Shown: piece by piece, positions 21,907 to 60,522 of the stretch
Position numbering within the stretch: the first letter of the stretch is position 1
Layout of the letters: each line of letters begins with the position of its first letter
From: Octopus vulgaris
Taxonomy: Eukaryota
Reading direction: 5' to 3'
NCBI GenBank assembly: GCA_951406725.2
Contig: OX597838.1
Span: 8,618,001-8,682,000 of the forward strand
DNA: 64,000 nucleotides
The notes under the pieces: generated by a model
What the model saw: the letters and a program-made list of their open reading frames with translations, nothing else
Databases searched by the model: none
What the model was told of the DNA's origin: nothing
Translations under genes and position numbers: made by a program

Positions 21907-21944
<38 letters not shown>

Positions 21945-22061
21945 TTACTTGGAGAAGAGAAACGACGCGTGCGTTCGGTCATATAATAACAATATAATAA
22001 ATAAATAAAATATATGCATATATACATACATATATGTACATACTTACATCCATATGTATAT

Positions 22062-22115
<54 letters not shown>

Positions 22116-22118
<3 letters not shown>

Positions 22119-22510
22119 TATAGGACACCACAAATAAACGTAGAACACAACGAGAACGAAAACATAAAATCAAACAAGGAAACGGACTTTTTTAACAACG
22201 AAAAAACAGAGTACAGGTCAAACAATACAAGGAAAATTCCCCTTCATCAGCTGCCCCTGGTTCGACTCAATGCGTGTTTCGAAGGTAAGGGCAGAACACG
22301 GCCAGACCGAAGCAGTCCTTCCTGCAAAAGGAATTAAGTAAAATTATTTTGCAGAGGGGTAAAACAAGTGACAAGAACAGGACGTAAAAGCAATACAAAT
22401 GAAGAAAAAACAGTAGAAAAAACAGTACAAATAAAGAATAACAGGACAGGGAACCAACAATAAGGGCTTTTTTTAAGGCCTAGACGGTGGAAAAATTAGA
22501 ACGCATGTGA
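22116..22510 (-). mobile_element. Short U-rich element carrying a non-circularly permuted hammerhead (22230-22321)
   Basis: Minus strand: GAAGG..CGUG-UU-CUGCCC-uua-CCUUC-GAAA-CACG..GGGCAG-CUGAUGA; abuts (TA)n. Confidence 0.75.
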
Positions 22511-22652
22511 AAAATCACGTGTCTGTGGAGTACTCAGCCACTTGCACTCTGATCTTCCTCCCTCAGTCCAGCTATCTCCCACTCCTCCTCTCTCAGTTAC
22601 GGAGTCACCACGATATGTGTGTGTGTGTGTGTGTGTGTACATAAAATGTATA

Positions 22653-59100: not shown

Positions 59101-59231
59101 CATCATCTTTTTTTTTCAACGCATACATAAACATATATATATGCATACATACATACTATCGTGCATACATGCAAACATGTACGCCTGCAAATTTAAATGC
59201 GCACATACTCTATACACTTACATATAGAGGG

Positions 59232-59319
59232 GGCTGGCCGAGTTGGAGCAAATATCAGAATTGAACAGCCGAAATTTGCTATGATGATTCGGTGTCTGAC
59301 TGAAGATTGAAGGCTTCGA
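59232..59319 (+). ncRNA. Non-circularly permuted hammerhead ribozyme candidate with kink-turn (copy 1)
   Basis: GGCUG/CAGCC, GCAAA-UA/GAAA-UUUGC, UCAGA/UCUGA-CUGAAGA, k-turn with UAU bulge and GA/GA. Confidence 0.75.
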
Positions 59320-59453: not shown

Positions 59454-59539
59454 AAAAGACCAAAAGGGTACGGGCGTCGCTATAAATATATGTATATGTA
59501 AAAAGGAATCTAATGTGCTTGGCTTAGATTTTCCTTGGG

Positions 59540-59625
59540 GGCTGGCCAGATCGGAGCAATCTCAAGATTAATCAGCCGAAATTGCGAGGATGATCCGGTT
59601 CTCGACTGAAGATTGAAGGCTTCGA
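59540..59625 (+). ncRNA. Non-circularly permuted hammerhead ribozyme candidate with kink-turn (copy 2)
   Basis: GGCUG/CAGCC, GCAA-UC/GAAA-UUGC, UCAAGA/UCUCGA-CUGAAGA, k-turn with GAG bulge and GA/GA. Confidence 0.75.
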
Positions 59626-60320: not shown

Positions 60321-60522
60321 AGGACGCCATGATAGATCGTTAGCTACTACACGCATTTTTTTCTCTCCTTGTTTTTTTCTGTGTATCTTTCTGTCGAAGA
60401 GCATAGGCTCGAAACGTAAAATACTATTTCTATTTCTATTCCTGAGCGTTATACTAATACATTTGTTTGTTTTGTACTCCACCTACCTCCGTCTTTTGTT
60501 TATTTTCGTAAACTTTCCCTTT
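60321..60522 (+). mobile_element. ~200-bp HHR-bearing short element flanked by (TA)n
   Basis: 60386-60421 UCUUU-CUGUCGA-a-GAGC-auag-GCUC-GAAACGUA-AAA. Confidence 0.82.

Follow-up and report, generated by a model that had tools for sequence, protein, structure and literature searches.

The question raised by this locus is whether the minus strand near 22 kb of the window (the whole 64,000-nt stretch of Octopus vulgaris DNA analysed here) encodes a self-cutting hammerhead RNA, and how the core of such an RNA would be held together if one strand of stem II comes from upstream. An earlier note had drawn a permuted hammerhead at 22230..22321, described as independent of the copies near 59 kb. The reading that we consider probable is that the minus-strand RNA folds as a split-core hammerhead of type-SGC block order, likely cutting after U22295, within a repeat (family A) that is likely a passenger of Naiad elements.

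On the minus strand from 22321 to 22230 the sequence agrees with the earlier note, and stems II, III and I are perfect in the order given there. Read 5′ to 3′ on this strand, the 5′ strand of helix Pb (CCCCU, 22355..22359; partner 22243-22239) is followed by the 8-bp hairpin Pa (22322..22354; 22354-22347 with 22329-22322), whose 3′ end abuts the 5′ strand of stem II (GAAGG, 22317..22321). The first G of GAAGG is G10.1, detached from A9. The 5′ strand of helix P4 (22307..22315; partner 22265-22257, one C-C mismatch) and the 3′ strand of stem III with U16.1 (CGTG-T, 22296..22300) come next. The predicted cut, placed by structural analogy and by the clustering of 5′ ends, follows U17 of a GUU triplet, between 22295 and 22294. 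Beyond it lie the 3′ strand of stem I (CUGCCC, 22294-22289) with the 3-nt linker UUA, together 22286..22294, and block G at 22273..22285, composed of stem II CCTTC (22285-22281), GAAA (22280-22277) and stem III CACG (22276-22273). The 3′ strand of P4 (22257..22265) leads into 22244..22256, which holds the 5′ strand of stem I (GGGCAG, 22256-22251) and the core CTGATGA (22250-22244, C3-A9). The 3′ strand of Pb (AGGGG, 22239..22243) follows immediately after A9. Stem I can be extended to 8 bp via G-U pairs. CUGANGA, GAAA, UH, G10.1-C11.1 and A15.1-U16.1 are all present in the window copy; by hammerhead numbering H17 falls at U22295, and all catalytic bases are canonical. The position drawn earlier thus stands while its size does not: two further helices, Pa and Pb, were overlooked, extending the fold to 22359, and the fragment 22225-22330 proposed for a cleavage assay would lose both.

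The core and all five tested helices are intact in the window copy and in 22 of the 66 distinct full-length family-A cores, and all core bases are retained in 53 of the 66. The GUU cleavage triplet of the window copy was counted against our reading. The k-turn (3-nt bulge plus tandem G-A/A-G) is broken in this copy, as had been claimed, the loop between stem III and P4 having no tandem G-A by eye; the pattern is present by eye in family B and in the available sequence of Naiad_Ovul. The nested minimum free energy structure of the window copy includes Pb, Pa and stem I (z -1.9), and a local hairpin at 22318-22304 competes in it with stem II and P4. Three other features were considered and rejected. 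The AG before GAAGG that would form a splice site with GTAAGT near the 3′ end is the end of a Pa strand and is not kept elsewhere. The other two, a hairpin AGGGG-AAUU-UUCCU lying downstream and a 9-bp duplex between AAUUCCUUU and AGGGGAAUU, can form in family A only and are not conserved.

Chance occurrence of the fold was assessed with a descriptor of this block order with the upstream stem II partner, run on an unselected sample of the window and 20 neighbouring stretches. It matched 4 times in 262,000 nt of real DNA, and 0 times in the reversed sequence, in the complemented sequence and in each of 40 local dinucleotide shuffles (262,000 nt); this strict form misses degenerate copies as well as the 59.6-kb copy, in which one stem I pair is mismatched. 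The earlier note had staked the fold on a descriptor that does not hit shuffled sequence at a similar rate and on a family consensus that keeps its stems. The first point is borne out by these counts and the second by the consensus, which retains all stems. Genome-wide, the pattern CCTTCGAAA-N23-27-CTGAHGA gave 6,126 matches against 6 in the reversed control, and a second pattern for this fold gave 3,624 against 36. A looser pattern gave 3,776 against 1,219 in its control, so about one third of its rows are chance. As pattern counts, these figures show a large superfamily. An Rfam scan of 22180-22420 returned no hammerhead at E≤10, and among the 150 of 515 matches listed for a scan of the whole window only microsatellite-driven miRNA matches were seen. 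The block order S-G-C sets the fold outside hammerhead types I-III, which have the circular order C-G-S. A minimal type I Penelope hammerhead of another repeat family lies at 51348-51320 (-), with a decayed relative near 60395-60420 (+), so both wirings coexist in the window.

Family A is the repeat of the window copy at 22 kb, and family B that of the 59-kb copies. A query with the 221 bases surrounding the motif, run on the 2.8-Gb animal assembly, yielded 3,111 first-look candidates for family A, 40 of which were scored (the best 96-98% identical), and the 59.6-kb family yielded 2,910. The family-A unit is about 0.8 kb long and non-coding. Its copies are monomers truncated at the 5′ end, partial tandems, or units whose 5′ piece is inverted; they sit in (TA)n tracts, and a tail of about 40 bp is optional. 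The window copy (21941..22516, minus strand) is 5′-truncated and ends in a (TA)n tract; its tail at 21941..21980, which some copies have and others do not, carries the partial-tandem junction. Next to family-A copies lie what we take to be a frameshifted mariner-type transposase (L025:2156-3188, +) and a GIY-YIG-like C-terminus of a Penelope-like element (L013:2613-3167, +). An unbroken 531-aa frame at L122:1448-3040 (+) is presumably like ABCE1/RLI by its motifs and possibly a retrocopy. Head-to-head family-A insertions occur at L023/L024/L029/L030, L144, L146, L165 and L281, with inversion points often inside the ribozyme. Family A has the partial-tandem pLTR-type arrangement and inverted 5′ pieces of a non-autonomous Penelope-like element, and the 30-40 bp tail and microsatellite sites as well. 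It was matched to Penelope-like elements because its copy structure bears the marks given in the available part of PMC8557442. The same fold is seen in the family-B copies at 59230-59315 and 59538-59620 (+), with the k-turn pattern between stem III and P4. The 59.6-kb copy has a stem I mismatch, and truncation has removed Pa and Pb from the 59.3-kb copy. Single-copy candidates with other stem sequences were noted at L126:1400-1540 (+), L129 (-), L110:2540-2640 (+), L118 near 1216 (-) and L133.

The 5′ ends of the copies were mapped around the predicted cut. For family A the anchor was a 21-mer lying 3′ of the cut at a distance of about 150 nt. Among its 1,277 matches, the first places on C1-C2 were taken and gave 94 distinct copies with mapped ends; for family B, 78 were mapped of 2,412 anchor matches. 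Among family-A copies reaching +29, 43 of 78 begin within -5..+29, as compared with 1 of 35 within -35..-6 and 4 of 82 within +30..+59. The corresponding fractions in family B are 28/67, 2/39 and 3/70. Fisher tests against the upstream window give p values of 9e-8 (family A) and 7e-5 (family B), for windows chosen after the data had been seen. The crowding recurs in a set anchored on the core. Element length does not explain the cluster, because the distance from the predicted cut to the 3′ end differs between the families (~355 nt in A, ~135 nt in B). In family A the ends are most frequent from +4 to +13; 10 of 94 fall at the TA at +7 and only 2 of 94 at 0/-1. We infer from this distribution that a few bases were lost and that joining took place through TA microhomology.

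The same ends could arise if the RNA were a conserved structure of hammerhead ancestry that does not cut, for example a binding site of the reverse transcriptase, with ends produced by stalling of the enzyme and TA microhomology. That the ends peak 4-13 nt inside and favour TA agrees with this, and so does the anole Poseidon hammerhead, which, in the available text of PMC11167929, needs protein for cutting, is dispensable for insertion in vitro and has no reads ending at its site. However, stalling of a reverse transcriptase, which travels 3′ to 5′, would be expected at the 3′ edge of the knot, where few ends occur (4/82, +30..+59), and also at the 8-9 bp Pa hairpin, where 1 end was found. The ends found at 0..+8 are past all 3′ helix strands, and the predicted cut forms their limit even though TA steps are present upstream of it too. 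Across phyla the catalytic bases are all retained in the available sequences. A structure that does not cut is thus unlikely. The analysis as a whole points to self-cleavage after U22295, and the end cluster would be a genomic footprint of cut RNA being used as template, a point of relevance to the role of hammerheads in Penelope elements. Expression was also sought in four runs presumed to be RNA and set aside as evidence: contigs cover the unit and summed depth is higher 3′ of the cut, a step that genomic copies share, and depth of contigs does not measure expression.

The partner of stem II was then decided across lineages. From 250 candidates, 110 clusters were formed, 36 were parsed and 12 full-length lineages were picked by hand; candidates outside the 12 are truncated, decayed or chance. 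Stem II forms 60 of 60 Watson-Crick pairs with the upstream strand, a figure made up of six distinct strand pairs (GAAGG/CCUUC is common to six lineages), as against 16 of 60 with the strand after CUGANGA. When stem II strands were swapped between lineages, 39% were paired. Own-strand pairing is 47/48 for stem I and 33/36 for stem III, and the strand-swap control over all helices gives 0.35-0.47. Taken alone, the window copy gives no significant upstream match: its 5 bp are reached in 28 of 300 shuffles. The claim that the upstream strand is the true partner is thus upheld, as is the view of the earlier note that cross-family agreement is its main argument.

An ordinary type-SGC hammerhead would instead form stem II with the GGGG after CUGAUGA, the upstream strand being alternative or inhibitory. 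Family A and its sisters could form a 4-bp pairing of this kind (one inserted A; two G-C and two G-U), and the block order and 3-nt linker between stems I and II agree with type SGC as given in the available text of PMC10085705. Against it, besides the 16/60 pairs over 12 lineages, stand the B families, where 0-1 bp can form, and the covariation of the same bases as Pb (U-A to G-C in lineage L249; 12 bp in family B). We regard this alternative as improbable. In the split-core fold the predicted break in the RNA backbone lies within the core, separating A9 from G10.1.

The two loose ends of the core are bridged by the helices that had been overlooked. The last base of the Pa hairpin directly precedes G10.1; Pb is formed between the five nucleotides on the 5′ side of Pa and the five that follow A9. 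Over the 12 lineages, Watson-Crick pairing between own strands is 56/60 for Pa and 51/60 for Pb, compared with 40% and 47% when pairs were swapped between lineages. Start positions of Pa and Pb were optimised, and the same optimisation was applied to shuffled flanks. The combined score was reached in at most 5 of 300 flank shuffles for 10 of the 12 lineages, and was not significant in the other two (30 and 22 of 300). In an alignment of 20 sequences from closer subfamilies, 92.1% of the cells of the six-helix structure are paired (slid controls, 35-51%). Both sides have changed in 22 of 34 pairs, which 0 of 500 shuffles reach; the structure was drawn from the same 20 sequences, and kinship inflates the shuffle test. 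As far as sequence and covariation can establish them, the catalytic bases and the six helices are shown. Pa and Pb have one continuous strand in common; together they would splint the two loose ends, presumably by stacking.

A dimer or trans complex of neighbouring tandem units as the cutting form, in place of the monomer fold drawn here, would suit the partial tandems and the dimeric cutting reportedly known for minimal Penelope hammerheads, but is very improbable: all helices close within 121 nt of a single unit at short, fixed spacings, and no strand after A9 could restore an unbroken block C in trans.

The 3′ UTRs of the available Naiad_Obim and Naiad_Ovul sequences contain the same split-core fold in the orientation of the ORF, with the stem I of family A, so that a 3′ UTR structure is common to family A and Naiad elements. 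The block order is also that of the 59.3- and 59.6-kb copies, with other stem sequences, as had been stated. The independence claimed for the 22-kb copy therefore holds for its sequence and not for its origin; because family A shares stem I with the octopus Naiad consensus, common descent is likelier than convergence. Among the Naiad sequences available to us, the full fold was recognised by eye in Naiad_Amil, Naiad_Aacu, Naiad_Anas, a Morbakka Naiad and Naiad_EuTe; with the two octopus elements, the hosts are octopus, corals, a box jellyfish and a clam shrimp. Naiad_Bfor and Naiad_Esco fit in part. Nematode Naiads in the available File S5 of PMC8557442 (parts 13-16) carry hammerhead cores in the normal C-then-G order with a long stem II loop. 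These sources suggest that Naiads employ non-standard hammerheads of more than one form.

In this genome a Naiad family with the fold lies 3′ of a reverse transcriptase fragment (RVT_1, E 1.3e-5, below the curated cut-off). The fold is found downstream on the coding strand in 13 of 46 Naiad-type reverse transcriptase remnants (8 of the 30 best and 5 of 16 more distant ones), and the family-A motif at none of the 46. Family-A units are without an ORF (N-terminal GIY-YIG, C-terminal RT), and a search around the copies found no Penelope-like ORF. The Naiad reverse transcriptase hits are all broken or old, whereas the best family-A copies are 96-98% identical. As none of the 46 loci had the family-A motif, the driver of family A is a deduced one and was not found. 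A young retroelement family with many intact ORFs of ~750 aa, 33-35% identical to the Naiad reverse transcriptase fragment, was also encountered (C3:61677166, C18:77003169, C12:16775338 and C14:18686830 of assembly G000; L496-L499). The 5 kb fetched at these four loci contained no hammerhead of either order on the coding strand.

Taken together, the split-core reading suggests the following course of events. Stem II would draw its 5′ strand from upstream, and P4 would tie stems I and II together at their far ends. Each ribozyme would cleave the read-through or tandem transcript that contains it. Family A would likely be a non-autonomous passenger of Naiad Penelope-like elements, copied in trans into (TA)n sites by a Naiad reverse transcriptase, which would begin near the 3′ tail and run off at the cut end. 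Such run-off would give many copies beginning 0-29 nt 3′ of the cut, and copies extending past it, such as the window copy, would come from uncut or re-joined RNA.

We also lean, by a small degree, towards a wider claim: that this is a seventh hammerhead wiring, a five-helix junction active in animals, standard in much of the Naiad clade and maybe re-ligating or circularising. Re-ligation may be possible because the products would stay paired via four helices (Pb, II, P4 and III); both it and RNA circles are speculative. If the wiring is real, the assumption that stem II has to follow CUGANGA without interruption would fall, and because that assumption is broken the list of six hammerhead permutations would be incomplete. 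Existing descriptors would then miss a class of well over 10,000 copies in one genome (summed non-overlapping pattern counts, which are lower bounds). There would be non-circularly permuted ribozymes in animal genomes, and the reported lack of hammerheads in Naiads would be a search blind spot.

Comparison with known systems places the fold between several of them. For Naiads, the available part of Craig et al. 2021 (PMC8557442) reports no canonical hammerhead and eight 'half-core' cases, including the 'HHR_half_core' of Naiad_Ovul. Family A is like these elements in its (TA)n sites, partial tandems, inverted 5′ pieces and 30-40 bp tail; unlike them it has no ORF, it looks younger than the Naiad remnants found, and the fold described here is absent from that part of PMC8557442. 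No account of the split-core wiring was found in the largely open literature, and the supplements of PMC10085705 could hold related cases.

For type SGC (HRIMA-1 and variants), the available text of Eckert et al. 2023 (PMC10085705) defines the blocks S, G and C and reports type SGC, which has the present block order, as validated; stems I and II are separated there by a linker that is usually 3 nt long, and their far ends are joined by a helix 'I'. Its block C 'cannot be interrupted', stem II standing directly after CUGANGA; its sources are metatranscriptomes and metagenomes, with none from genomes of known organisms bar one GCS candidate. The present fold has the S-G-C order, two pseudoknots, the 3-nt linker, a full core and an equivalent of helix 'I' in P4, which connects the segment 3′ of stem II with that 5′ of stem I. 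Unlike type SGC as described there, it takes the 5′ strand of stem II from upstream, bridges A9 and 10.1 with Pa and Pb, joins P4 to stem III via an internal loop (k-turn-like in some families) and is hosted by animal retroelements. Judged by sequence, it shares the type-SGC circle and falls outside that type on block C (16/60 downstream vs 60/60 upstream); it corresponds to that circle with a break between A9 and 10.1, across which Pb and Pa, presumably stacked, would act as a splint.

Non-LTR retrozymes and Penelope pLTR units carry type I (C-G-S) hammerheads in the available texts of bioRxiv 10.64898/2026.07.22.740005 and PMC11167929, and tandem type I hammerhead units have been described as non-autonomous derivatives of Penelope-like elements. 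Like non-LTR retrozymes as presented there, family A consists of short, non-coding, tandem-prone units with one hammerhead each, presumably mobilised by Penelope-like elements. Unlike them, it is found mostly as dispersed truncated monomers and 1.x-mers, and its fold is a permuted, split-core one.
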